A DNA stretch of 64,000 bases from a virus (taxonomy: Duplodnaviria > Caudoviricetes), in the IMG/VR virus record IMGVR_UViG_3300025030_000876, positions 676 through 64,675 of that record; one strand, 5' to 3'. The notes beneath the pieces are model-generated. The model had not been told where the DNA came from and ran no database searches. It saw only the letters and a program-made list of their open reading frames with translations. Below are positions 38,948 to 60,109 of the stretch, one piece after another. Each line of letters starts with the position of its first letter. Position 1 is the stretch's first letter. The position numbers and the translations under genes were made by a program.

Positions 38948-39749
38948 ATGGCTACCCGATGGGGTTTAACTGCTGGAGCATACAAAAAGTGGTGTTTTAT
39001 CTTCGATAAACCCCTGCCGGTGGTTATTACAACAAACAGTCCTATCAGTGACGCGAGTTATGTTAGGGATGTTATAAGATACGCGAATATGAATAATCTA
39101 AAAGGCGCGAATTGGTTTAATAATGTTAAAGTTTCCGCCGCAGAAGATGGAACCTTGGTTATCTCTCACCGCAATGGAGGCATGGAAGTCTACCCGAAAC
39201 TTAACATTTTTGAATTCATTCGTACAATCCAAGATAACGAATACAAAGACGGAGATAGGTTTATTGTCCTAGACGGTCACCTTGCCGCGAAACAAGTTTG
39301 TGAGAACCTTCAACTTAGCATCATTCATCTTGGGAATGATGTAGTAGAAATTAGGAGATAGCTATGTTTGGGCTCTTGAACTCTGTGTTGAATTTAGGCA
39401 AAAATGTAGTGGATATTGCAGTTGCCCCAGTAGAAGTTGCTGTAGATATTGTAAACGCTGGAGTGAAGCCTGTTGCTGACGCCGCGAAAGATATAGTGAA
39501 AGATATTAAAGAAAGCACGAAATAATGGACTACTCAGATATCTTCACTCGGCCTATCGAGGAAATAACGGATGATGAGATAATTCAGCGCGCTAGGGAGT
39601 TGCGAGAAAAGGGCCGATACCCAGTAATTGTTAAAACTCCAGTAGATAAAAAACCCAAGGCTAAAAAGAAAACGAAAGCTGAGGAACAATTAGAGGGTTT
39701 ATTTAATCAAGCACAAAAATTAGCCGAGGCTAAGAAACAGGATGGGTGA
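38948..39749 (+). CDS. Three hypothetical proteins (38948..39361, 39364..39525, 39525..39749)
   Basis: Coupled ORFs; 39364..39525 is a 53-aa amphipathic peptide. Confidence 0.65.
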
Positions 39750-40395
39750 ATGCACAGTAGATAATTGTAAAAATTATTCCTATGCTCTTGGGTATTGTAA
39801 ACGCCACTGGAGGCAATTCCATATTTATGGTAAAATCTTACCTGCAGCAAAACGTGATCCTAATGAAATTAAGTCAGATGGAGATATTGCCTATATATTT
39901 TTATACAACTATAAGGGTATAAAAATAGCAGAAGCAATAATTGACAACTCCGATGTGGATTTAATTAAAAATATAAAATGGTCTTGTGATAGCAAAAATT
40001 ATGTGCGTAATGACAGGCTGGGGAGTCTACACCGTTATTTGCTAAAGCCAGCAAGAGGAGAAAAAGTAGATCATATAAATTGTTGTCCACTAGATAATAG
40101 AAGAAGCAATTTAAGAATTTGTACCACTAAGGAAAATTCATGGAACCAAAGAGGAAGAAGTATAAGTGGATACAAAGGCGTATACAAAAATGGAGATGTG
40201 TTTCAAGTATCAATATGTAAAGATGGAAAAGTATACAATTTAGGAAGATTCAAATGTAAGAAAGCCGCGGCATACGCATACAACCAAGCAGCTATTAAGT
40301 ATTTCGGTGAATTTGCGTTACTGAATGTTATTGAGTACAACCAAGAGGCTAGTTATGTTAAATTTGAGCGCGTCACAAATAACGACCTTTTATGA
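39742..40395 (+). CDS. HNH-AP2 homing endonuclease
   Basis: DHINCCPLDNRRSNLR; AP2 SGYKGV...AAYAYNQAAIKYFGEFALLN. Confidence 0.9.
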   Translation: MGECTVDNCKNYSYALGYCKRHWRQFHIYGKILPAAKRDPNEIKSDGDIAYIFLYNYKGIKIAEAIIDNSDVDLIKNIKWSCDSKNYVRNDRLGSLHRYLLKPARGEKVDHINCCPLDNRRSNLRICTTKENSWNQRGRSISGYKGVYKNGDVFQVSICKDGKVYNLGRFKCKKAAAYAYNQAAIKYFGEFALLNVIEYNQEASYVKFERVTNNDLL

Positions 40396-41176
40396 ATGCA
40401 ATAGGCGTTGGTATTATACCTATATCAACCGTAAAACAAAAAACTCTACAGGTGCAATGGACAAAGGTTCTTGTTTTCACTTTTGTCACGAACTGCATTA
40501 CAAGGACAAAATAGGTCTACGGGAAATCCCGGAAGCAATTAAAGAAAGAAAACCAGAGTATGAATCTGTAATGCCCGAAGTATTCCCAGCGTTTATCCGC
40601 TACACCGGGGACCAAGGTGGTTATGAAATCATTGAACTTAATGGTGAACCTGCTATCGAAGTAAACTTCCAACTCCAGATTGCAGACGACATCACTATCC
40701 GAGGGATGATTGACAGAATTCAACAACAAGGGGTTAGGAAGTACATAACCGACCTCAAAGTAACAAGCAGTTATCTCAATGACAACTTCTTCAGTAAATT
40801 TGAAATGTCTATCCAGGCAATGCTTTATTCCCTTGTTGGGAGAGAATACTTTGATAGACTAGATGGATTCCTGATTGACGCAGTACAAATTGGCAAAAAG
40901 TACGATAACAAGATTCAGTTCTTTCCTTTGCTCCCGACCATTGAGCAATTTGTTAGTGAGCTTCACAGGATTGGCAAAAGCATTATTGCTAACCTTGATA
41001 ACAAAGATTTCTTCATCCACAATTACTCCAGTTGCATCAACCGCTACGGCCACCGTTGTAACTTCTTTGAAGTCTGCCGCGCTAAGAATGAAATGCAAGA
41101 AGTTATACTTAATAGCTCTGAGTTCGTAGATTACAAAAGCCCTTATGACAAACCAAAGGAGATTGAAGATGTTTAG
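40355..41176 (+). CDS. PD-(D/E)XK (RecB/Cas4-like) exonuclease with Cys cluster
   Basis: LSASQI..C, GMIDR, TDLK, QAMLY, C..C..C. Confidence 0.85.
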   Translation: MLNLSASQITTFYECNRRWYYTYINRKTKNSTGAMDKGSCFHFCHELHYKDKIGLREIPEAIKERKPEYESVMPEVFPAFIRYTGDQGGYEIIELNGEPAIEVNFQLQIADDITIRGMIDRIQQQGVRKYITDLKVTSSYLNDNFFSKFEMSIQAMLYSLVGREYFDRLDGFLIDAVQIGKKYDNKIQFFPLLPTIEQFVSELHRIGKSIIANLDNKDFFIHNYSSCINRYGHRCNFFEVCRAKNEMQEVILNSSEFVDYKSPYDKPKEIEDV

Positions 41177-48652: not shown

Positions 48653-49052
48653 TGATTTCGCAGACCTAGTAGATAAAGCTATAGCTTTAAACAAAGCAAA
48701 CCGAAAATGCGGACCTAGTAGTGCAATGTTTTCACCAATAGCTTATGCTAAACAGATGTGTACTGTCAAATTAGATATTGGGCGGGCAGTGGGTAAATCA
48801 ACTTATATCGCAGATCATGCAACAGCCAAGGATATCATTATAGTGCCAACGCTAAGACATAAATCCATGATGTATCTTTATTATAAAGATAAAAATGTAG
48901 TGGCGTATACTGAAATCCTAGGTTATCGTACAAGCAAGCCACCATATGTCAATATTTATGTAGATGAAATTGCTGGTATTGATTTGGATTTTATTTATAA
49001 CACATTTGTTGACTCAACGATTGCACAAACCTTTATCATCTTGGGAGCTTAA
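48642..49052 (+). CDS. Small stand-alone P-loop NTPase
   Basis: GRAVGKST and IYVDE in only 136 aa. Confidence 0.6.
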   Translation: MLVDDFADLVDKAIALNKANRKCGPSSAMFSPIAYAKQMCTVKLDIGRAVGKSTYIADHATAKDIIIVPTLRHKSMMYLYYKDKNVVAYTEILGYRTSKPPYVNIYVDEIAGIDLDFIYNTFVDSTIAQTFIILGA

Positions 49053-49054
49053 TA

Positions 49055-50137
49055 ATGGCAAAGCCTAAGAAAAGAGAATTCCTGCAACTGGCTTTTACTT
49101 ATAATCCTGCTAAACACAACATCACCAATTGGCTAGTATCCGAGAAACTTGATGGGTGCAGAGCATTTTGGGATGGCAGGGTCTCCAGAGGTATGCTTTG
49201 CTCCGAAGTACCTTGGGCGAATACTCTCAAAGATAAAAAAGAGTTTACGGCAACGGGCTTATGGAGTCGTTATGGGAAACCCATTTTCGCCCCTGAATGG
49301 TTTCTAAACCAACTCCCGGTAGGAATTCCACTTGACGGAGAACTCTTCGCCGGGAGGGGTAAACACCAGACGCTTAGAAGTGCCACGTCGAAGCATATTC
49401 CTATCGATAGCGAATGGCAGAAAGTTAAGTATTGCATCTTCGATTCGCCTAATTTGTGTGATGTTCTTTATAATTCTACAATTAACATTACTAACTTCCA
49501 GAAAACTATCTCAGGAATGCAAGAGTTTTTTATCGCTAATAATGAACCTCCTGCGCATCATGGGTGTAAGACTTATGCTCAAGTTTACCAGTATCTCCAA
49601 GACACTTGGATTTACCAACCAAACATGGAACTTGTACTGCAAACCCCAATGCACATGATTGATGATATTGATACCATGCTGGCTGAGATTGTATCATCTG
49701 GCGGGGAAGGCCTAATTTGCAGAGACCCTTATGCTTCTTATGTCCCTTGGCGTGCTCATTCAATGGTAAAACTTAAGCCTTCGTTGGATTCAGAAGCAGT
49801 TGTAGTGGGATACATCACAGGGCGTGAAACAGATAAAGGCTCTAAACTCCTTGGCCTCATGGGAGCAATGATTGTTGAATGGAGAGGCAAAAGATTTGAG
49901 CTTAGTGGCTTTACGGGTGAAGAAAGAACTCTGCATATATGCGAAGGCCCTTCCAGATATAACAAAGCAGTTGCATTCGATTGGGCAGCCGAAAATCCAG
50001 AAACTCGATGTCCTGGTTGGATTGAAGCAAAGCATTTCCCTAAAGGCTCTAAAGTGACCTTCTGCTACAGGGAACTCACAGATAAAGGGATTCCTAAGGA
50101 GGCGCGTTTCCTACGTCCTCGCGGAGACTTCGAGTAA
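49055..50137 (+). CDS. ATP-dependent DNA ligase
   Basis: SEKLDG, LDGEL, FD, EGL, KLK, plus OB domain. Confidence 0.92.
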   Translation: MAKPKKREFLQLAFTYNPAKHNITNWLVSEKLDGCRAFWDGRVSRGMLCSEVPWANTLKDKKEFTATGLWSRYGKPIFAPEWFLNQLPVGIPLDGELFAGRGKHQTLRSATSKHIPIDSEWQKVKYCIFDSPNLCDVLYNSTINITNFQKTISGMQEFFIANNEPPAHHGCKTYAQVYQYLQDTWIYQPNMELVLQTPMHMIDDIDTMLAEIVSSGGEGLICRDPYASYVPWRAHSMVKLKPSLDSEAVVVGYITGRETDKGSKLLGLMGAMIVEWRGKRFELSGFTGEERTLHICEGPSRYNKAVAFDWAAENPETRCPGWIEAKHFPKGSKVTFCYRELTDKGIPKEARFLRPRGDFE

Positions 50138-51081
50138 TGGTAAAAAACAAACTAAACCCATCTGCCCCGGTAGCAATCCTAGTTGGAACCCCAACCGCAG
50201 AGGATGATGTTAAGCGCAAACTTCTTAGCTGCAAAGCAGGGCAAAAGTTCCAATCATTCTTGAGTGCTAATGGGATTTTGCCAGATGATTGTAGTTACTT
50301 GTCGCTTGTATCCGAACGCCACCCTACTTTGGATAGAATCCGCCCAGATGAACTACTTTGCTGGCAGGAACTAACTCGTAGAGACATAGTTAAAATCAAT
50401 CCCAATATTGTGTTGGCTGTTGGCGAACTTCCATTTAAGTTCCTAACTGGCCTTAGTGACCATTACTCCTATAGAGGTTATATTTGTAAACCACTTATGG
50501 GAGATTTCAAAGTTCTTTGCATTTGGGATTATAGCAACTTCTTCTCTAATCCAGAATGGAATCCATTAACTCACTGGGATGCAGCAAAAGTAAAAGAGCA
50601 TATGCATACCAAAGACCCAATGTATAATAAAGTAGAAGTAATAGTCACCCATAATCTGCAATTAATTATGGACGAGTTTCTTAGCGAAGAGTACATAAAT
50701 AATCCAGACAGCATGTTATCTTTCGACATTGAGTGTAATAAGCAAGAATTAACTTGTATTGGATTCGCTAAAGAGACAAATAAGGCTTATGTAATTCCGT
50801 TGAACAAAATGCATTCCGGTGAATATGCCAGAGCAATTAGGGTTATTAATGCTGTGCTTAAATCACCAGTCAAGAAGGTAGCCCAGAATGGGTCGTTTGA
50901 TATAACATATCTTGCATACTACAACAATATCCAAGTTAATAATTTCGCATTCGATACTATGCTAGCGATGCACTCAATGTATTCAAATCTCCCGAAAGGA
51001 CTTGGTGTTCTTGGGTCTGTGTTTACTAATTGCGAACCCTGGAAAATGAACAAAGGTGATGACTCAGATGATTTTAAGTAG
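50137..51081 (+). CDS. polA: Family A DNA polymerase, N-fragment (degenerate UDG-like domain plus ExoI/ExoII)
   Basis: UDG4-like fold (INPNIVLAVG...YRG); SFDIE; QNGSFD; FDTMLA. Confidence 0.85.
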   Translation: MVKNKLNPSAPVAILVGTPTAEDDVKRKLLSCKAGQKFQSFLSANGILPDDCSYLSLVSERHPTLDRIRPDELLCWQELTRRDIVKINPNIVLAVGELPFKFLTGLSDHYSYRGYICKPLMGDFKVLCIWDYSNFFSNPEWNPLTHWDAAKVKEHMHTKDPMYNKVEVIVTHNLQLIMDEFLSEEYINNPDSMLSFDIECNKQELTCIGFAKETNKAYVIPLNKMHSGEYARAIRVINAVLKSPVKKVAQNGSFDITYLAYYNNIQVNNFAFDTMLAMHSMYSNLPKGLGVLGSVFTNCEPWKMNKGDDSDDFK

Positions 51082-51089
51082 GAGTTTTT

Positions 51090-51701
51090 ATGGCTAAATG
51101 CTCAGTGGAAAATTGTGAATCAAATATACTAGCTAAACAATTATGTAGCAAGCATTATCAGCAAAAATATATTTATGGTGGTATTCGACGAACTAAATTT
51201 GACCCAAACGAAATTTTGGAATACGATAGTCATGCTGAGATAAAGCTCTATGATGCTAAAGGCAACCATATAGCATCGACGTTAATTGATTTAGATGATT
51301 CTCAAAGAGCCAGAAAATATAAATGGTATTTAAGCGGTGGATATGTGAAGACCCAGGATGGTCTAACCCTAGCTGATTATATTATGAGAAAACCTAGGGA
51401 AATGTATATTGACCATGCGAACAGGAATACATTAGATAACAGAAAATCAAATCTGCGAATATGTACTGCTGGGCAAAATAACTGTAATAAGCCCAATTGT
51501 GGTAATAGACAATCTAAATACAAAGGTGTTCACTATAATGGATATTCCTGGTGTGCATTTATTTACAAAGGAAAGTCTTATTATATAGGTAGTTATAATT
51601 CTGAAATTGAAGCAGCAAGAGCTTATGATATTAAAGCTATAGAATTACATGGCGAATTTGCTTATTTGAATTTCCCGGAGGACTATGATGGCAAAGATTG
51701 A
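51090..51701 (+). CDS. HNH-AP2 homing endonuclease inside polA
   Basis: DHANRNTLDNRKSNLR; SKYKGV...AARAYDIKAIELHGEFAYLN. Confidence 0.9.
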   Translation: MAKCSVENCESNILAKQLCSKHYQQKYIYGGIRRTKFDPNEILEYDSHAEIKLYDAKGNHIASTLIDLDDSQRARKYKWYLSGGYVKTQDGLTLADYIMRKPREMYIDHANRNTLDNRKSNLRICTAGQNNCNKPNCGNRQSKYKGVHYNGYSWCAFIYKGKSYYIGSYNSEIEAARAYDIKAIELHGEFAYLNFPEDYDGKD

Positions 51702-53052
51702 TTTTTCAGCACAAAGTAATGCAAACTTTGACTGGGAGGCATTTTACCGATACAATGGCCGCGATGCTGCTAATACTCTTGCTATTGCATTAGTAGAAAA
51801 GGATTTGTTGAAAGTCCGAGGAACTGAAGCAACCTTTGCCCAAGAAATGGCATTGACTTATCCTTTGATTACTGCTGAATGTATTGGAATCAAAGTAGAC
51901 CCAGCAAAGATTGAAGAGTTGTCAGAGCAAATTAGTGAAATTATTCGTAAATGGAAATTATATATTCAAACTCTTGTTGGCTACGATATTAATCCCAACT
52001 CATCCCAGCAACTACAAGAGTATCTTTATGATAGACTCAAATATCCCAAGCGAGTAAAGAAAGGTAAAATTACTGTTGATGTTGATGCTTTGATTAGCTT
52101 GATTCCATATAACCCAGTGCTAATTAAGCCTATTGCAATTTATCGCAAACTAATAAAGGAGTATTCTTTCTACAAAGTAAAAGTTGGTGAAGACGGGCGC
52201 GTTAGAACAACACTCAAACCAGCAGGCACAGAAACAGGACGATTAGCATCTAGTAAGAGTATTACTGGAACTGGCACGAACTTGCAGAATCAACCTAAGA
52301 TTGTACGACAGATTTATATCCCCGATGAGGGAAATATATTCCTCCAAGTTGATTACGGTAAGGCCGAGAGTTGGTTGGTGGCATACATGGCCCAAGACCA
52401 AAAGATGCTTGATGCATTACGTGGGCCAGATTTTCACAGTACAAACGCTTCTAACTTCCTAGGCCGCCCAGTTACTAAAGCAGATTATGCTGACAGACAA
52501 ATCGGCAAAAAGGTAAGCCACGCAAGAAACTACCGAATGACAGCTTTCTTGCTTCAAAAGGTGATGCTACGGGAGGGATTCAATCTATCTAAGTCAGATT
52601 GCCAAGATTTGTTAGACAAATATGACAGAAGCTACCCAAACATCAAGAATGTATACCACAAATGGGTAGAAGAGCAATTACGTAGAGATATGACAATAGC
52701 TAATGCTTTTGGGAGAAAGATAACATATTTTGGTTTCTGGAACGATGCGTTACTTAATGCCGCTACTGCGTTTTATCCACAATCAACAGTCGGTGATATG
52801 ACCAACAAAGCATTGATTAATCTATATGAACAATTTAGAAATAGGCCAGTGTGGGTTAATCTGCAAGTACATGACTCTATTCTACTCCAAATGCCAAAAG
52901 CATACTTAACTTGGGATTTGATTGATGAGATTAGAGGATGTATGGCTGTTCCATTAACAGTACGTGGCGAAACATTTACTATCGGAGTAGATTTTGAGGC
53001 AGGGTATGATTGGTATCACTTAGACGATCTAAGCAAACATCTGCCTGCTTAA
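51685..53052 (+). CDS. polA: Family A DNA polymerase, C-fragment (ExoIII plus polymerase domain)
   Basis: YNGRDA; TETGRLASS..NLQN; motif A DYGKAE; motif B RQIGKKVSHARNY; motif C VHDS; own GGAGG RBS. Confidence 0.92.
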   Translation: MMAKIDFSAQSNANFDWEAFYRYNGRDAANTLAIALVEKDLLKVRGTEATFAQEMALTYPLITAECIGIKVDPAKIEELSEQISEIIRKWKLYIQTLVGYDINPNSSQQLQEYLYDRLKYPKRVKKGKITVDVDALISLIPYNPVLIKPIAIYRKLIKEYSFYKVKVGEDGRVRTTLKPAGTETGRLASSKSITGTGTNLQNQPKIVRQIYIPDEGNIFLQVDYGKAESWLVAYMAQDQKMLDALRGPDFHSTNASNFLGRPVTKADYADRQIGKKVSHARNYRMTAFLLQKVMLREGFNLSKSDCQDLLDKYDRSYPNIKNVYHKWVEEQLRRDMTIANAFGRKITYFGFWNDALLNAATAFYPQSTVGDMTNKALINLYEQFRNRPVWVNLQVHDSILLQMPKAYLTWDLIDEIRGCMAVPLTVRGETFTIGVDFEAGYDWYHLDDLSKHLPA

Positions 53053-53092
53053 TGTTGTTTAAATAATTCTGTCAACCTAAGTATTTTCTGTC

Positions 53093-53121
53093 TTGATAAC
53101 TACGGGTTTAATTGGTATAAT
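53093..53121 (+). promoter_or_regulatory. Promoter TTGATA-N17-TATAAT (extended -10)
   Basis: Near-consensus, in an intergenic gap. Confidence 0.75.
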
Positions 53122-53148
53122 TAACTATACTTCACAAGGAGAACTGCT

Positions 53149-53799
53149 TTGATTATCGGAGTAAGCGGACGTATAGGCTCAGGCAAGACTGAGTTTGCTA
53201 GGTTGGCAGAGAGTGAGTTCAACGCAACAGTGGTTAACTTTGCGGGAGAACTAAAGAAAGAAGTAGATGGTTATTTGCATCAATGGCAGATAGCTCATAG
53301 CGATGCTTCTCTTTGGGGGCATCAAGATCATAAAGCCGAAAGAAACATCAGAATTCCTATGTCTTGTGTGACTCTGGAAATGCAAAAACATGGATTCAAG
53401 TCTTATGGAGTTAGTGAAACATCGGACCTTATTCAATTAACCTCTGGCCGCGAACTTCTCCAATTCTGGGCTGAATGGAAACGCGCAATCAACTCCAACT
53501 ACTGGGTCCACAAACTCTTTGCTGAAATAGAAGACTCTGATTTTGTGGTTATTGATGACGTTCGCTACACCAACGAAGCGGATATGATTCGGATATGTGA
53601 TGGTTATGTCCTTAGAGTCAACCGTATTCCTGCATTTAGTAACTCTACCCATATTGGTGAAGTCCAACTTGATAACTACCCAGGTTTTTGTATGACCATC
53701 ACCAATGATTCTTCCCTTGAATCCTACCACAAACTCTGCCGCGAGGTACTTACCCATTATCGGAGGTCTTACTTGGATGCAAAAAGAGGACACTTTTAA
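53149..53799 (+). CDS. Deoxynucleoside monophosphate kinase
   Basis: IIGVSGRIGSGKT, FAGELK, RELLQ, DDVRYTNE. Confidence 0.85.
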   Translation: MIIGVSGRIGSGKTEFARLAESEFNATVVNFAGELKKEVDGYLHQWQIAHSDASLWGHQDHKAERNIRIPMSCVTLEMQKHGFKSYGVSETSDLIQLTSGRELLQFWAEWKRAINSNYWVHKLFAEIEDSDFVVIDDVRYTNEADMIRICDGYVLRVNRIPAFSNSTHIGEVQLDNYPGFCMTITNDSSLESYHKLCREVLTHYRRSYLDAKRGHF

Positions 53800-54106
53800 A
53801 CTATTTTTATTGCAAAATGGCTTCGACCCAGAAGGCTTGATGCAGATAATCAAACTCCATCCATCATTACTCGATGTTTATGAGTTTGATGAATTAGCGC
53901 CATTGTGCCTACTAAGTTCAAAGCTGTTAAAAAAGAAGCATTGCTATATCTATCTCCCTGAGTTCCTTTACGATATCGTAGCCAAAGGAAACCCAGAAGC
54001 AATAAACCGTGTGTTGGAGCAACTTATCTTCAAAGAATTCTCCGGCCCGGCAGTTGATGTTATCGACTCTCATTTGGATGTTGCCAAAAACCTCTTAGGC
54101 AAATAA
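53777..54106 (+). CDS. Hypothetical protein
   Basis: GGAGG RBS, MQKEDTFK... Confidence 0.55.
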   Translation: MQKEDTFKLFLLQNGFDPEGLMQIIKLHPSLLDVYEFDELAPLCLLSSKLLKKKHCYIYLPEFLYDIVAKGNPEAINRVLEQLIFKEFSGPAVDVIDSHLDVAKNLLGK

Positions 54107-55283: not shown

Positions 55284-56074
55284 ATATATAGATACATTCC
55301 AAGTAAGGATTAAACTAGCGGATCATGCTATAGCGGATGTAGATAAACTTAAATCTGCATTTAGTAAAACTGAACAAGCCTTTAAAGAGTTGCAACAAGC
55401 TATGGCTGAATTTGATGAAATAGCTCAACGCTTTAACTACTATAACCCTATCGAAACCGAGGTGGTAGATGGCGAAGATAAATAGTATCCAAATCGAATT
55501 ATCCACAGGGCGCAAGATAACCTTGAGTAAAACAGAAGCTAGAGAGTTGAAACTTAAACTTGATGAATTGTTTGGAGTTACTTATTATCCAACTTGGTAT
55601 CCTAATTATCCAATAGTAACTTATACCACAGATAATATAAAATTTGTCAGTTCCACAGCCTCAGATACCATTGATTTGAATAAAATTAAAACGGGCATTG
55701 AGGATTCAATTAACAAAGGACTTACTAAATGAGCATCCTATATCTAAACGACGTTGAGCCATGTTTCTGTTGTTCCAAACCCACTAAACGCGTAAACACC
55801 GAACTTGAACTCCCAAGTTGTTCTCTTTCTTGCGACGTTAAACTCTTCGAGGAGCCTATTGATGAAACTGGTAATTAAATGGCTAGAAGATTCCCATGAT
55901 TGTGAAACTTGCGGATATTCGTATTCCTATGGGGCTAAAGTAACTTTAGACGATGTAGTTATCCTAGATGACTTCGAGAAAGCTCATTGTTACGGTGGCT
56001 CGGATGTAACTCCTGAAGATATCCTTAAAGCTCTTTGCAAACATCTCAATATTGAAATCCGGGAGATTTATTAA
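55276..56074 (+). CDS. Several small hypothetical proteins
   Basis: Coupled ORFs 55276, 55469, 55862. Confidence 0.55.
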
Positions 56075-59000
56075 TGAAGTTAACTGACCGTGCTGAAACA
56101 GTTGCTAAGCTCCGAATCTTTGCAAAAGATGCTACTGGCAACTGTATCGAAGATTTCGATGGAATGTGCCATAGGGTTGCAAAGCATCTTGCAAATTCCG
56201 AAGAAGAAGAAAAAGACTTATTCTGGGTGATGAATAATCTTTTGTTTTTGCCTAATAGTCCTTGCTTGGTAAATGCAGGAGCTAAAGGACGTAAGAATCA
56301 ACTCAGTGCTTGCTTTGTTTTAAGCGTAGAAGATTCTATCGAAGACATCTATGACACCATCAAAGAAACCGCATTGATTCACAAAACCGGCGGAGGTACG
56401 GGTTTCAATTTTAGTAAAATCCGCCCGAAAGATTCCAACGTAGCCTCAACTGGTGGCGTTGCTTCTGGCCCGGTTAGTTTCATGAAAGTCTTTGATGCTT
56501 CCACGGATGGCATCAAGCAAGGCGGAGTTCGTAGGGGTGCGAATATGGGAGTTCTCCGTGTTGACCATCCTGATATCCTAGACTTTGTTAATTGTAAACG
56601 CGGGAAGAATGCACTACAGAACTTTAACATCTCAGTAGCAATCACTGATGAATTCATGGAAGCTAAGCTCAAAGGTAATGAGTTTACTTTGGTTAATCCC
56701 AAAACCAAAGAGAAGACTTCTATCAGTGCTAAGACCATCTGGGATGCGATAGTAGATAACGCTTGGAATTCAGCAGACCCAGGTGTACTGTTTATCGACC
56801 GAATCAACGAGCACAATCCCCTGACCGGAGTTAGTAGTATAATCGAAGCTACTAATCCTTGTGTTTCTGGAGATACCTTAGTATTAACTGATAATGGATA
56901 CATTCGCATTGATGAGCTTGTTGGTAAACCAGTTAATATTTGGAATGGTTATAGATTTTCTAAAGTTACTCCGCAGATAACAGGAACAAACCAGAAGATG
57001 GTAACTGTGGAGCTAAGCGATGGTAACAAACTCACATGCACAGAATATCATAAATTCATTGCTTGGAAAGGAACTGTCGCAGCCAAGGATTTGCAAATTG
57101 GGGATAAATTAATCAAATGGAATTATCCGGTAATTGAGGGCAATACTACGCTGCCAAGGTCTTATGCTTACACTACGGGTTTCTTTTGTGGAGATGGTTC
57201 GCAAGAAACTACTAGAGACAGGAATTCTATCTGGCTTTATGGAGACAAAATAGCTTTGTTGGACCATTTGGAATACGCTACGTACAATGAATGCGCAAAT
57301 GACCGGTTGTTTGTTAAGATGCGTCCTAGCGTGTTTGATAAACAATTTGTACCAGACACTAATTATTCAATACAAACCAGGTTAGATTATCTGGCTGGGC
57401 TAATTGATTCTGATGGTACTCTCAACGACAAAGGAGGAAGTATAGCTCTTTGGTCTAATGATAATACCTTCATTACCAAAGTAAAATACATGCTCCATAC
57501 TCTTGGCATTAATTGTTCAGTATCTATCGGCACTTCTGGTGGAAGTAAATCAATGCCTAATGGCAAAGGAGGGCATAAAGAATATAATACTCAGGATTGT
57601 TTTCGGCTGGTAATAAGTGCTTACAATGTGATGAAGTTACGTGAATTAGGCTTGGCTACAAATAGAGTGGCTGTAGATGCCAAACCTAATAGAAGCTCGG
57701 CCAGAGCAATATATGTAAAATCTGTCGAAACTTCTGGTATCGCTGATGTTGTTTATTGTTTTACTGAGCCATTTAATCATACTGGTGTGTTTAATGGTAT
57801 GATGACAGGGCAGTGCGGAGAACAACCATTAGCGCCTGGAGAAGCATGCGGGCTTGGAAGCATCAATCTAGCAGAAGTTATCAAAGACTACGGCATCGAC
57901 TACGACAAACTAAAAAAGATAACTCGTATTGGCGTTTTGCTTCTCAATCGCATGATGACTAAGAGCGAATACCCTAACAAGAAGATAGCTGAACGCGTTA
58001 ACGCTTCTCGTAAAATCGGCCTCGGCGTAATGGGTTTCGCTGACATGCTTATCAAGATGCGTATCCCGTATACTTCCCAAGACGCTCAAGAAGTTGCAGG
58101 GAACATTGCTCAGTGCATCTTGGATACTTGTGTTAAAGCAACCCACGAGCTAGGAACCAAAGAAGGCGTGTTTCCTTTGTTCAAATCAGAATACAAAATG
58201 CCGGGACATATTAAGGAATCTCTCAAGAGACTGAAGATTAAGCCTAGCGATTACAAACCGGCAAATAGCACACTTACAACCATCGCGCCAACAGGAACGC
58301 TTAGCATCATTGCTAATTGCTCCAGCGGGATTGAACCTATTTTTCATTTTGAACAAACAGAACGTAGAGTTGATATGGAGATTGTCCATACCCATCCTTT
58401 GTATGCAGCCTATAAAGAAAAGTTCCCTAAATGTGACATGCCACATTACTTTCAAGAACTTGCCGATATCGACGTAGATACACATGTCTATATCCAAGCA
58501 ACATTCCAGAAGTATATTTGCAGCGGGGTTAGTAAAACAGCAAATCTTCCTCATGACGCAACAAAACAAGACGTTGAGAAAGTCTACCGTGAAGCGTTTA
58601 TTCTTGGCTGTAAAGGAGTGACCGTCTACCGTGATGGTTGCTTGGAGAATCAAGTAATCTCAGGGAAGGATTCTAAAGGCTTTACCATTGCAACAGAAAT
58701 CCTACCAGAACCTAGGCCCGAAGCACTTAGCGGTATCACCTATGAAATCAAGACTGGCTTTGGGCCGATGTTGGTAACGGTGAATTATAAAGATGGGAAG
58801 CCATTTGAAGTCATCTGCCAACTAGGTAAAAGCGGCGCGAGTGAAGCAGCTAAGGCAGAAGCGATTAGTAGGCTTTGTAGTATACTACTGCGTTGTAATG
58901 TACCTCCAAAAGTCATTGTGGAACAACTTGAAGGGATTGTTGGCAGCGAAAGCATCCATACCAAATACGGACTTGTTACTTCCATCCCTGATGCTCTTAG

Positions 59001-59157
59001 TAAAATCATGATTAATCATGTGCTTACTAAGGAAGAATATAACCCGACCATTCCAACCATGATAAAATGCCCAGACTGCGGAAAGTTCAATACCATGATT
59101 AAAGAAGGTAGTTGCTCCACTTGCCAGAACTGTGGCTTCAAGTCATGTGGAGGCTAA
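56074..59157 (+). CDS. nrdJ: Class II (B12-dependent) ribonucleotide reductase with intein and TSCPD/Zn-ribbon C-terminus
   Basis: PNSP, LSACFV, GGGTG, RRGANM, NP[intein]CGEQPL, TIAPTGT, SKTAN, YRDG; no nrdB or nrdG nearby. Confidence 0.93.
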   Translation: MKLTDRAETVAKLRIFAKDATGNCIEDFDGMCHRVAKHLANSEEEEKDLFWVMNNLLFLPNSPCLVNAGAKGRKNQLSACFVLSVEDSIEDIYDTIKETALIHKTGGGTGFNFSKIRPKDSNVASTGGVASGPVSFMKVFDASTDGIKQGGVRRGANMGVLRVDHPDILDFVNCKRGKNALQNFNISVAITDEFMEAKLKGNEFTLVNPKTKEKTSISAKTIWDAIVDNAWNSADPGVLFIDRINEHNPLTGVSSIIEATNPCVSGDTLVLTDNGYIRIDELVGKPVNIWNGYRFSKVTPQITGTNQKMVTVELSDGNKLTCTEYHKFIAWKGTVAAKDLQIGDKLIKWNYPVIEGNTTLPRSYAYTTGFFCGDGSQETTRDRNSIWLYGDKIALLDHLEYATYNECANDRLFVKMRPSVFDKQFVPDTNYSIQTRLDYLAGLIDSDGTLNDKGGSIALWSNDNTFITKVKYMLHTLGINCSVSIGTSGGSKSMPNGKGGHKEYNTQDCFRLVISAYNVMKLRELGLATNRVAVDAKPNRSSARAIYVKSVETSGIADVVYCFTEPFNHTGVFNGMMTGQCGEQPLAPGEACGLGSINLAEVIKDYGIDYDKLKKITRIGVLLLNRMMTKSEYPNKKIAERVNASRKIGLGVMGFADMLIKMRIPYTSQDAQEVAGNIAQCILDTCVKATHELGTKEGVFPLFKSEYKMPGHIKESLKRLKIKPSDYKPANSTLTTIAPTGTLSIIANCSSGIEPIFHFEQTERRVDMEIVHTHPLYAAYKEKFPKCDMPHYFQELADIDVDTHVYIQATFQKYICSGVSKTANLPHDATKQDVEKVYREAFILGCKGVTVYRDGCLENQVISGKDSKGFTIATEILPEPRPEALSGITYEIKTGFGPMLVTVNYKDGKPFEVICQLGKSGASEAAKAEAISRLCSILLRCNVPPKVIVEQLEGIVGSESIHTKYGLVTSIPDALSKIMINHVLTKEEYNPTIPTMIKCPDCGKFNTMIKEGSCSTCQNCGFKSCGG
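56860..57813 (+). mobile_element. Intein (318 aa) with LAGLIDADG endonuclease
   Basis: Begins CVSGDT, has TEYH block B, GFFCGDG and LAGLIDSDG, ends MMTGQ before extein C. Confidence 0.92.
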
Positions 59158-59530
59158 ATGGCTCTTACTAACCACAACTGCAGCCCATGTATCATCAACA
59201 CCAAGAAAAAGTGTGCATCTTGTGTTCTTGCGAGAAAACAATATGAAACACCATGTATTGCAACTGAAAGTATGTTAGTAAAATTCCTTCGTCATCATCG
59301 TTACGAAGATTATCTATCAACCGAGGAACATTTTTAAAGGAGCATCTAGTGACCAACAAAGAACTGGCCGTATCAATCATCAACGAAATCTCAACTGACA
59401 TCAACAGCCGGACTGGTTTCGGAGTCGTATGGCGTCAAATCTCCGTAACCCGCAAGAAAGAAATAATCGACGCTTGGGAACATCGTATCATCAGACTTCT
59501 GGAAGCAGAAGAGAAAGGGAAGATAAAGAA

Positions 59531-60109
59531 ATGAGTGTGAAGACATTGTGGCTTGACTGCGAAACAACAGGTTTAGTGCCATATAAGCATGGTATTATTC
59601 AACTAGGTGGGATGATAGAAATTGGCGGAGAGGTAGTAGAAACCTTCAATTTCAGAATGCAGCCTTGCCCTACTGCAATCATCGACGACAAGGCTATGCA
59701 AGTAAACAAGATAACTCCAGAGGAACTTAGGACTTATCCATCGTCAAACAGCCAATATTGTGCATTTATTAATGTCCTTGACAAGTACATTAATAAATTC
59801 AACAAAGAAGACAAATTCATTCTCGCTGGTTACAACGTTCAATTTGATGATGGTTTTGTAAACCACTGGTTTAAACGCAATGGAAATAACTACTGGTACT
59901 CCTATGTCAACAGTGCGAAACTTGATGTAATGTCTTCCGTAGCAACTTGGCGTAGAGCAACCAATACCAAAACCCCTAACAACAAACTAAGCACAATCGC
60001 TGAATGGTTTGGTATCGGCGGAAACTTCCATGATGCTCTAGACGACATCAAAGCAACCAGAGAACTTGAGTTGAAAATCCAAGAAGTAATGTGCGGTATC
60101 AGAAACTAA
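59531..60109 (+). CDS. DEDDh 3'-5' exonuclease (DnaQ-like)
   Basis: DCETTG, GYNVQFD, HDALDD. Confidence 0.9.
   Translation: MSVKTLWLDCETTGLVPYKHGIIQLGGMIEIGGEVVETFNFRMQPCPTAIIDDKAMQVNKITPEELRTYPSSNSQYCAFINVLDKYINKFNKEDKFILAGYNVQFDDGFVNHWFKRNGNNYWYSYVNSAKLDVMSSVATWRRATNTKTPNNKLSTIAEWFGIGGNFHDALDDIKATRELELKIQEVMCGIRN

Follow-up and report, generated by a model that had tools for sequence, protein, structure and literature searches.

A family A DNA polymerase divided between ExoII and ExoIII of its proofreading domain, with an HNH endonuclease gene between the two parts, in a phage from groundwater

The 64,000-nucleotide stretch of DNA analysed here (the window) is nearly the whole of a 64,675-base IMG/VR virus record (G000), which CheckV rates as complete and which comes from a groundwater metagenome assembly. 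Within its replication module, recognised from Pfam matches, the gene for a family A DNA polymerase (PolA) is present as two open reading frames (ORFs) separated by a third, free-standing gene. All three lie on the plus strand: an N-subunit gene (fragment 1, 50137–51081, 314 aa), an endonuclease gene of the HNH_3 family with a weak AP2-like match (51090–51701, 203 aa; Pfam, PHROG) and a C-subunit gene (fragment 2, 51685–53052, 455 aa). Fragment 1 ends with a TAG stop codon (51079–51081), which is overlapped by an AGGAG sequence (51080–51084), the putative ribosome-binding site of the HNH gene. Only 8 nt (51082–51089) separate fragment 1 from the HNH gene, and the latter overlaps fragment 2 by 17 nt. 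A GGAGG sequence inside the 3′ end of the HNH gene (51677–51681) is the putative ribosome-binding site of fragment 2, located 3 nt from the ATG at 51685 and 6 nt from a second ATG at 51688, at which the database gene call P0001 (454 aa) begins.

Fragment 1, defined by its ORF, Pfam, the PHROG profile phrog_17 and alignments, combines a UDG-like domain with the ExoI and ExoII motifs of the 3′–5′ exonuclease. The UDG-like domain spans residues 6–138 (50152–50550; Pfam UDG, 26.1 bits against a cutoff of 24.3) and matches the Thermus UDG 1ui0 in the PDB (E 0.0013). In the alignment columns, the family-4 motif GEAPG reads GTPT in the window and the HP motif is lost, so the domain is probably non-catalytic; both motifs are kept in P0014, P0018 and P0019, basal members of the window's clade. 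A structural role rather than glycosylase activity is probable, comparable to what has been proposed for the UDG-PolAs of N4-like phages. Residues 177–278 match only positions 4–109 of the 173 positions of the Pfam profile DNA_pol_A_exo1. An alignment of 27 sequences showed ExoI (D197-I-E199, 50725–50733) to be invariant, as are N251 and D255 of ExoII (N251-G-S-F-D255, 50887–50901).

Fragment 2, defined by its ORF, Pfam, PDB and PHROG, starts with the ExoIII helix and continues into the polymerase domain. Of ExoIII (Y23-N-G-R-D27, 51751–51765), Y23, G25 and D27 are invariant in 17 sequences; by the alignment offset, Y23 and D27 correspond to Klenow Y497 and D501. The Pfam profile DNA_pol_A covers residues 75–444 (E 1.9e-46), the PDB matches are the Bst, Taq and Klenow polymerases, and residues 19–405 align with positions 170–567 of the Klenow chain. 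D223/Y224/E228, K275/Y283 and H396/D397 are likewise invariant in the 17 sequences and represent motifs A, B and C. The two fragments are consecutive parts of phrog_17 (positions 489–786 and 798–1238). The ExoI, ExoII and ExoIII residues are thus all present but divided over two polypeptides, the first two motifs on fragment 1 and the third on fragment 2. A first-pass annotation, made from the letters of the window alone, had described this division of the proofreading motifs and the three-ORF layout with its coordinates and the ribosome-binding site of fragment 2, and each of these elements is indeed present.

A 30.6 kb contig from another assembler covers 49500–53500 with 0 differences and without joints, although it may share the sample and is therefore not independent data. 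An HNH-less form of the locus was not found among the contigs of two runs over 49500–53500; a second sample gave only pieces of 156–238 nt, which bridge nothing and are uninformative on variants.

Splicing of RNA or protein, or translational recoding, might yield a single-chain polymerase from the locus. Fragments 1 and 2 share a reading frame, and the accessible text of PMC10580990 cites introns in related phage polA genes (SPO1, T7-like phages). A search of 49800–53300 against Rfam 15 (E ≤ 10) returned no intron family, but only four chance-level matches to unrelated families. In the alignment with unsplit homologues, conserved polymerase sequence runs up to a WK pair (51040–51045) and resumes at about 51724, so that just 44 nt and 22 nt belong neither to conserved polymerase coding sequence nor to the HNH ORF. 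A group I or group II intron of the SPO1 polA type was rejected, as there is no Rfam core and too little sequence outside the ORFs to hold one. An intein is excluded by the 15 stops, with TAA, TAG and TGA all represented, that interrupt the polymerase frame between the fragments, and by the different frame of the HNH gene. A fractured gene with an intein or split intein was also rejected: the Pfam search found no intein domain at the locus, and split-intein halves would need far more than the 11 and about 13 aa that the tails offer. These results bear out the earlier statement that neither an intron nor an intein is present. In 64 of 67 measured loci of the large clade of split polymerases described below, moreover, and in Kuura, a Caulobacter phage in culture, the halves lie 180–1924 nt apart with genes between them. 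As far as computation goes splicing is excluded, and a single-chain product of any of these routes is very improbable.

Alignment with unsplit homologues placed the breakpoint in the loop between WK and ExoIII. The closest relatives are 45–54% identical and are mostly single proteins of 750–790 aa with the same order of UDG-like, exonuclease and polymerase domains. Across 85 unsplit homologues, the segment from WK to ExoIII varies from about 8 to 25 residues, which points to a permissive loop. Fragment 1 ends 11 residues past WK, and the conserved [ND]F[DN]W motif, which precedes ExoIII, follows after about 13 residues of fragment 2.

The same break occurs in relatives that have no HNH gene at this place. 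The complete phage G001 (63.7 kb; loci L002 and L009) shares both genes and the positions of the break, with a 332-aa N gene and a C gene that are 159 nt apart. Its tails match those of the window, with 11 aa after WK and, counted from the second Met, 12 aa before [ND]F[DN]W. The G001 gap contains a single Cys-rich ORF of 55 aa that overlaps the upstream stop and the downstream start (L002 5841–6008). We considered this ORF as a remnant of an HNH gene and rejected it, as BLASTP (E ≤ 100) did not align it with the HNH protein and PHROG returned no match. In L101, which also belongs to the G001 clade, the N gene (330 aa) and the C gene (494 aa) are separated by 1007 nt with four small ORFs (L101 3493–4474); one of the gap ORFs gave a weak, below-cutoff match to a Lar-like zinc ribbon (E 9e-4), and a tblastn search of L101 with the HNH gave no match. 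Had the endonuclease broken the gene, relatives without it might be expected to keep an intact gene at the site, but G001 and L101 are split.

Fragment 1, used as a query against 1.84 billion cluster representatives, returned 2533 matches and revealed a much larger group of such polymerases. We examined 150 proteins, namely 149 non-self matches of this search and P0123. More than half (79 of 150) are no longer than 400 aa, and 76 of these 79 end 6–17 residues after WK without an ExoIII motif. Their partner C-type polymerases measure 490–550 aa and start 21–26 residues before ExoIII; at least 564 IMG/VR stretches encode such C genes. An N gene lies upstream on the same strand in 77 of the 80 loci kept; in the other three, the sequence upstream is shorter than 260 nt, too short to decide. 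Kuura (L015) belongs here, with Kuura_029, two small ORFs and Kuura_026, the last annotated as DNA polymerase. Kuura_029 is annotated as a hypothetical protein and is the UDG-like/ExoI–II half of the polymerase; the accessible text of the Kuura paper passes over the structure of the polymerase without comment. A PolA that is split elsewhere, inside the polymerase domain, was observed in Vibrio phage vB_VspS_VS-ABTNL-3 (L016, 24872–28006), where the 184-aa ORF PVS_28 interrupts it.

The contents of the gap in the large clade are diverse. Gap length at the 67 measured loci ranges from −55 nt (an overlap) to 1924 nt and is most commonly 318 nt. When the gap ORFs adjoining the C gene were grouped by BLAST and one representative per group was compared with Pfam, DUF7768-like (16 loci), KTSC-like (13), DUF1937-like (11) and HNH_3 (3) groups were obtained, besides a nucleoside deoxyribosyltransferase and singletons. 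These groups are unrelated, which indicates that the space between the two genes is a variable cargo slot with HNH as one of several occupants. HNH genes account for only 3 of the 58 loci with an adjacent gap ORF, so an endonuclease is not required for the split. Genes of the DUF7768, KTSC and DUF1937 types were also seen directly upstream of the polymerase gene, often overlapping its start codon (L017–L096).

On a tree of 101 rows built from the polymerase parts, the large split clade is separate from the clade of the window. Strongly supported branches force at least two changes between the split and unsplit states, and the overall minimum is three. The approximately unbiased test does not reject a common origin of the split in the window and the G001 clade (p = 0.152). 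On this tree the split has at least two origins, and we regard the ExoII–ExoIII loop as a site at which natural fission recurs in this polymerase family.

The HNH gene has the features of a mobile element. It matches HNH_3 with 27.7 bits (cutoff 24.8) and the HNH endonucleases of phrog_99 (E 7e-32), and its GC content is 0.337, with 0.25 at third codon positions (GC3) as compared with a GC3 of 0.34–0.37 in the flanking polymerase genes. A genome search and Pfam identified a second HNH_3/AP2-like gene on the plus strand of the window (39742–40395, 217 aa, GC 0.341), 42% identical to the copy in the polymerase gap. G001 carries a homologue beside its RNase_T gene, 6 kb from the polymerase, so that copies occupy three different loci in two phages (two in the window and one in G001); no homologue was found in the records of five other relatives. 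The GC3 of the HNH genes is markedly below that of their neighbours, and this, together with the copies at other loci and the sporadic distribution, is typical of a free-standing endonuclease gene that moves and not of a constant component of the polymerase locus. Judged by gene positions, HNH-AP2 endonucleases have several sites of residence within the replication module. We take the HNH gene as most likely a mobile element that moved into a gap already present, gaps of this kind having arisen more than once.

Two further observations concern this endonuclease family. The second copy in the window overlaps the start of a downstream PD-(D/E)XK nuclease gene (40325–41176) by about 70 nt, an arrangement like that at the polymerase locus. 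Two metagenome loci have a homologue with 37% identity (L098 1972–2445 and L099 1568–2041), in each case about 1.1 kb upstream of a PolA gene that is unsplit.

The first-pass annotation had held that the HNH gene fractured the polymerase. This is not supported, given that HNH-free relatives are split at the same place across gaps of 159 nt (G001) and 1007 nt (L101). The same split is common in phages without an HNH gene, and the HNH gene is therefore probably not the cause of the break. The opposing view is that polA was still intact in this lineage when HNH-AP2 entered and split it, as in the Aeh1 nrdA/mobE case, and that the HNH-free relatives lost the endonuclease or acquired the junction by co-conversion; homing does co-convert flanking DNA, according to the accessible text of PMC2988022. 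Several observations speak for such an insertion: the majority of close relatives have an unsplit gene, the gap is filled nearly exactly by the HNH ORF, which also bears the ribosome-binding site of the downstream gene, and HNH_3 genes occur in the same gap at three loci of an unrelated split clade, which suggests that endonucleases target this place. In addition, native sequence around GK.W is apparently kept in both tails, a pattern that duplication of a short stretch during an insertion would leave. However, G001 and L101 share the codons of the split, but their gaps hold unrelated small ORFs and no detectable HNH remnant, the gap in the large clade mostly holds other cargo, and low GC3 and copies at other loci fit a later arrival as well as a founder. 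On balance, we regard a split caused by the HNH gene as rather unlikely.

A split older than the HNH gene and independent of it is the view that we prefer, and several findings weigh against it. On the tree, 15 of the 20 rows that form the clade of the window are unsplit, as are 15 of the 17 assessable metagenome loci. With most close relatives unsplit, it is still plausible that the split arose inside this clade, possibly through insertion of an endonuclease. The best tree places the G001 clade beside the unsplit P0002 and P0003 (Shimodaira–Hasegawa-like approximate likelihood ratio test, 85) and apart from the window, and, with one genome of the lineage available, the split in the window could be an event of its own. 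As no relative more than 54% identical was found, the form that the locus had immediately before it acquired the HNH gene is out of view. The AP2 assignment is weak as well, with a match of 23.1 bits (E 9e-5) below the cutoff of 33.3, and that of the second copy in the window is weaker still. Finally, the association of the subunits and their exonuclease activity are what we infer from the model and residue conservation presented next.

The two fragments are predicted to form a complex. Three model runs of fragments 1 and 2 gave ipSAE scores of 0.91, 0.91 and 0.92, whereas the best of three controls scored 0.00. Of 80 solved complexes, 58 attained the score mark applied here, as did 2 of 110 mismatched pairs; this calibration is only roughly valid, our own alignments having been used. 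At least 86% of contacts recur between runs, and the predicted local distance difference test score (pLDDT) of the partner is at least 87. In the model, residues 193–199, 206–221, 248–261 and 270–303 of the N subunit face residues 17–66 of the C subunit, the ExoIII helix of fragment 2 is placed within the ExoI/II fold of fragment 1, and both new tails are outside the confident interface. Because the two chains are halves of a fold that has often been solved as a single chain, the pass may reflect memory of such structures; it shows likeness to that fold and is not independent evidence of binding. The catalytic residues of both active sites are kept in split and unsplit members alike, and the split is kept across relatives that are only 41–54% identical, which indicates that both halves are under selection. 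The heterodimeric PolA proposed in the first-pass annotation is thus upheld as the state that model and conservation make most likely, while its association and its exonuclease activity stand as predictions.

That annotation had offered an alternative in which proofreading was handed over to a separate DEDDh exonuclease, which would leave the exonuclease of the split polymerase dead. A gene of the RNase_T family is indeed present at 59429–60109 (Pfam, E 1e-22). However, homologues occur in the records of three of five relatives, of which G001 is split while G002 and G004 have a PolA that is unsplit at this site, so that the gene does not track the split and is not a specific replacement for proofreading. 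The split halves also keep their exonuclease residues, the ExoI–III positions being invariant in split and unsplit polymerases alike. We consider such a hand-over improbable. Decay of the polymerase gene into a pseudogene, with replication by another polymerase, is suggested by nothing but the interruption itself and is scarcely credible: both ORFs are intact with Shine-Dalgarno sites and catalytic residues, persistence of the split at 41–54% identity implies purifying selection, and a search of the record with fragment 2 gave one match and no second polymerase.

We consider it fairly probable, all told, that the phage encodes a PolA of two subunits which jointly form the proofreading site, that the split is older than the HNH gene, and that the gap is a landing site now occupied by HNH. 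The replicase would then be a two-subunit family A DNA polymerase, in which the N subunit contributes a degenerate UDG-like domain together with ExoI and ExoII and the C subunit contributes the ExoIII helix followed by thumb, palm and fingers. The subunits would be translated separately from their own Shine-Dalgarno sites and then re-associate, the ExoIII helix of the C subunit packing into the ExoI/II fold of the N subunit to complete the 3′–5′ proofreading site. The split would predate the present HNH gene and be independent of it, with the space between the genes receiving small cargo genes and homing endonucleases. The HNH gene presumably spreads during co-infection by cutting HNH-less alleles of related phages, into which it is then copied by repair.

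More tentatively, and with less confidence than even odds would warrant, we suggest that UDG-like/PolA replicases split at this loop and working as heterodimers with a composite site are a large class. The gap would be an integration hot spot for DUF7768, KTSC, DUF1937, nucleoside deoxyribosyltransferase-like and homing endonuclease genes, and homing would spread the split into unsplit alleles. If true, such sideways spread would explain the interleaving of split and unsplit members on the polymerase tree.

The polymerase locus is part of a replication module that reads, in order, glycosyltransferase, methyltransferase, ATP-dependent DNA ligase (49055–50137), polymerase locus, deoxynucleoside monophosphate kinase, DUF3987 protein, ribonucleotide reductase with a LAGLIDADG intein, and the RNase_T-family exonuclease (59429–60109). 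The intein of the ribonucleotide reductase (56074–59157; barrel and TSCPD) is in frame and of the LAGLIDADG type (Pfam LAGLIDADG_3, Hom_end and Intein_splicing), and with it the phage has at least three mobile elements of the endonuclease type. Promoter and terminator scans of 49000–53400 gave 13 and 5 hits, not above the 12.1 and 3.1 expected from shuffled sequence. A blastn search of GenBank phages with 49000–54000 gave no match, and fragment 2, as the sole query against viral contigs, retrieved no relatives.

In several relatives, the polymerase gene is interrupted at another place, after the equivalent of fragment 2 residue 280 in motif B (SHA|NYG). The insert of G001 is in frame, about 140 aa long, and begins with C and ends N|S (L002 6835–7248); that of L007 is in frame and about 297 aa long (L007 5302–6192); that of L008 changes the frame and measures about 910 nt (L008 5383–6292); and L115 has two (L115 3661–4500 and 4834–5739). 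The inserts have end residues like those of inteins, yet none gave a Pfam intein match.

The division of a phage polymerase over several genes has precedents. For T7-like cyanophages, the accessible text of Czernecki et al. (2023, NAR, PMC10201439) reports a fission between the exonuclease and polymerase domains as the first in PolAs, and also describes UDG-PolA fusions. The PolA of phage S-SBP1, as described in that text, resembles the window in belonging to family A and in its two adjacent genes, modelled re-association and loose new termini, but there the exonuclease and polymerase domains were separated by a frameshift, the genes overlap and nothing has been inserted. In the window, by contrast, the break is inside the exonuclease domain, a gene lies between the halves and the N subunit carries a UDG-like domain. 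In the LUZ24-like Pseudomonas phages, PolA functions are also on separate genes (gp25, the exonuclease subunit, and gp34, part II), with other genes including an endonuclease between them (PMC3890496, accessible text). LUZ24 gp25 has ExoI, ExoII and ExoIII in one protein of 169 aa without a UDG-like domain, so that its site is not composite and the break is at the domain boundary. A boundary break of the S-SBP1/LUZ24 type is not what the window has, ExoIII being on its polymerase subunit. For the phages MEP401 and MEP402 of OM43, the accessible text of PMC10580990 describes a split polymerase with a small ORF of unknown function between the halves and leaves the mechanism open. Our literature search, which did not extend to most subscription journals and supplements, found no description of a PolA split between ExoII and ExoIII.

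Endonuclease genes between the halves of essential genes are also known. The closest parallels are Aeh1 nrdA/mobE and the gp43 of phages 25 and 44RR. In the former, a free-standing HNH gene separates the halves of an essential gene of nucleotide metabolism or replication, with no splicing, an active site built from two polypeptides and short tails (Crona et al. 2010, PMC3045599; PMC2988022; accessible texts). The split of Aeh1 nrdA is attributed to the insertion, from which its tails, which are essential, also stem. The window differs in that HNH-free relatives are split too and in that the tails look like native loop and are outside the confident part of the modelled interface. The fractured genes of Dassa et al. 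(2009) have the same order of half gene, endonuclease and half gene, but their exteins are ligated by split-intein halves (PMC2677866, accessible text), whereas the window has no intein sequence. Gene 43 of T4-related phages is similar in another respect: the accessible text of PMC2988022 allows that a seg endonuclease entered an already split gene. In Aeromonas phages 25 and 44RR, likewise, the endonuclease may have invaded a gp43 gene that was already split, and the halves co-purify and are active (PMC2988022, PMC2677866, accessible texts). As far as those texts describe it, that system differs from the window in being a family B polymerase with a GIY-YIG endonuclease and another break position.

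The PolA of the window is of interest as a natural fission point inside a family A proofreading domain that evolution has repeatedly tolerated, as a test case for the assembly of a catalytic site from two chains and as a guide for the engineering of split polymerases. Stand-alone N halves such as Kuura_029 are easily mis-annotated, so that surveys in which polymerases of about 500 aa are called exonuclease-less may be wrong. The locus is also a clear example of the question posed by the T4-like gp43 genes, whether an endonuclease broke an essential gene or entered a broken one, and there are hundreds of metagenomic loci with which to answer it. Compared with the systems above, the polymerase described here is distinct in the position of its break within the exonuclease domain, in the recurrence of the split and in the behaviour of its gap as a cargo slot.

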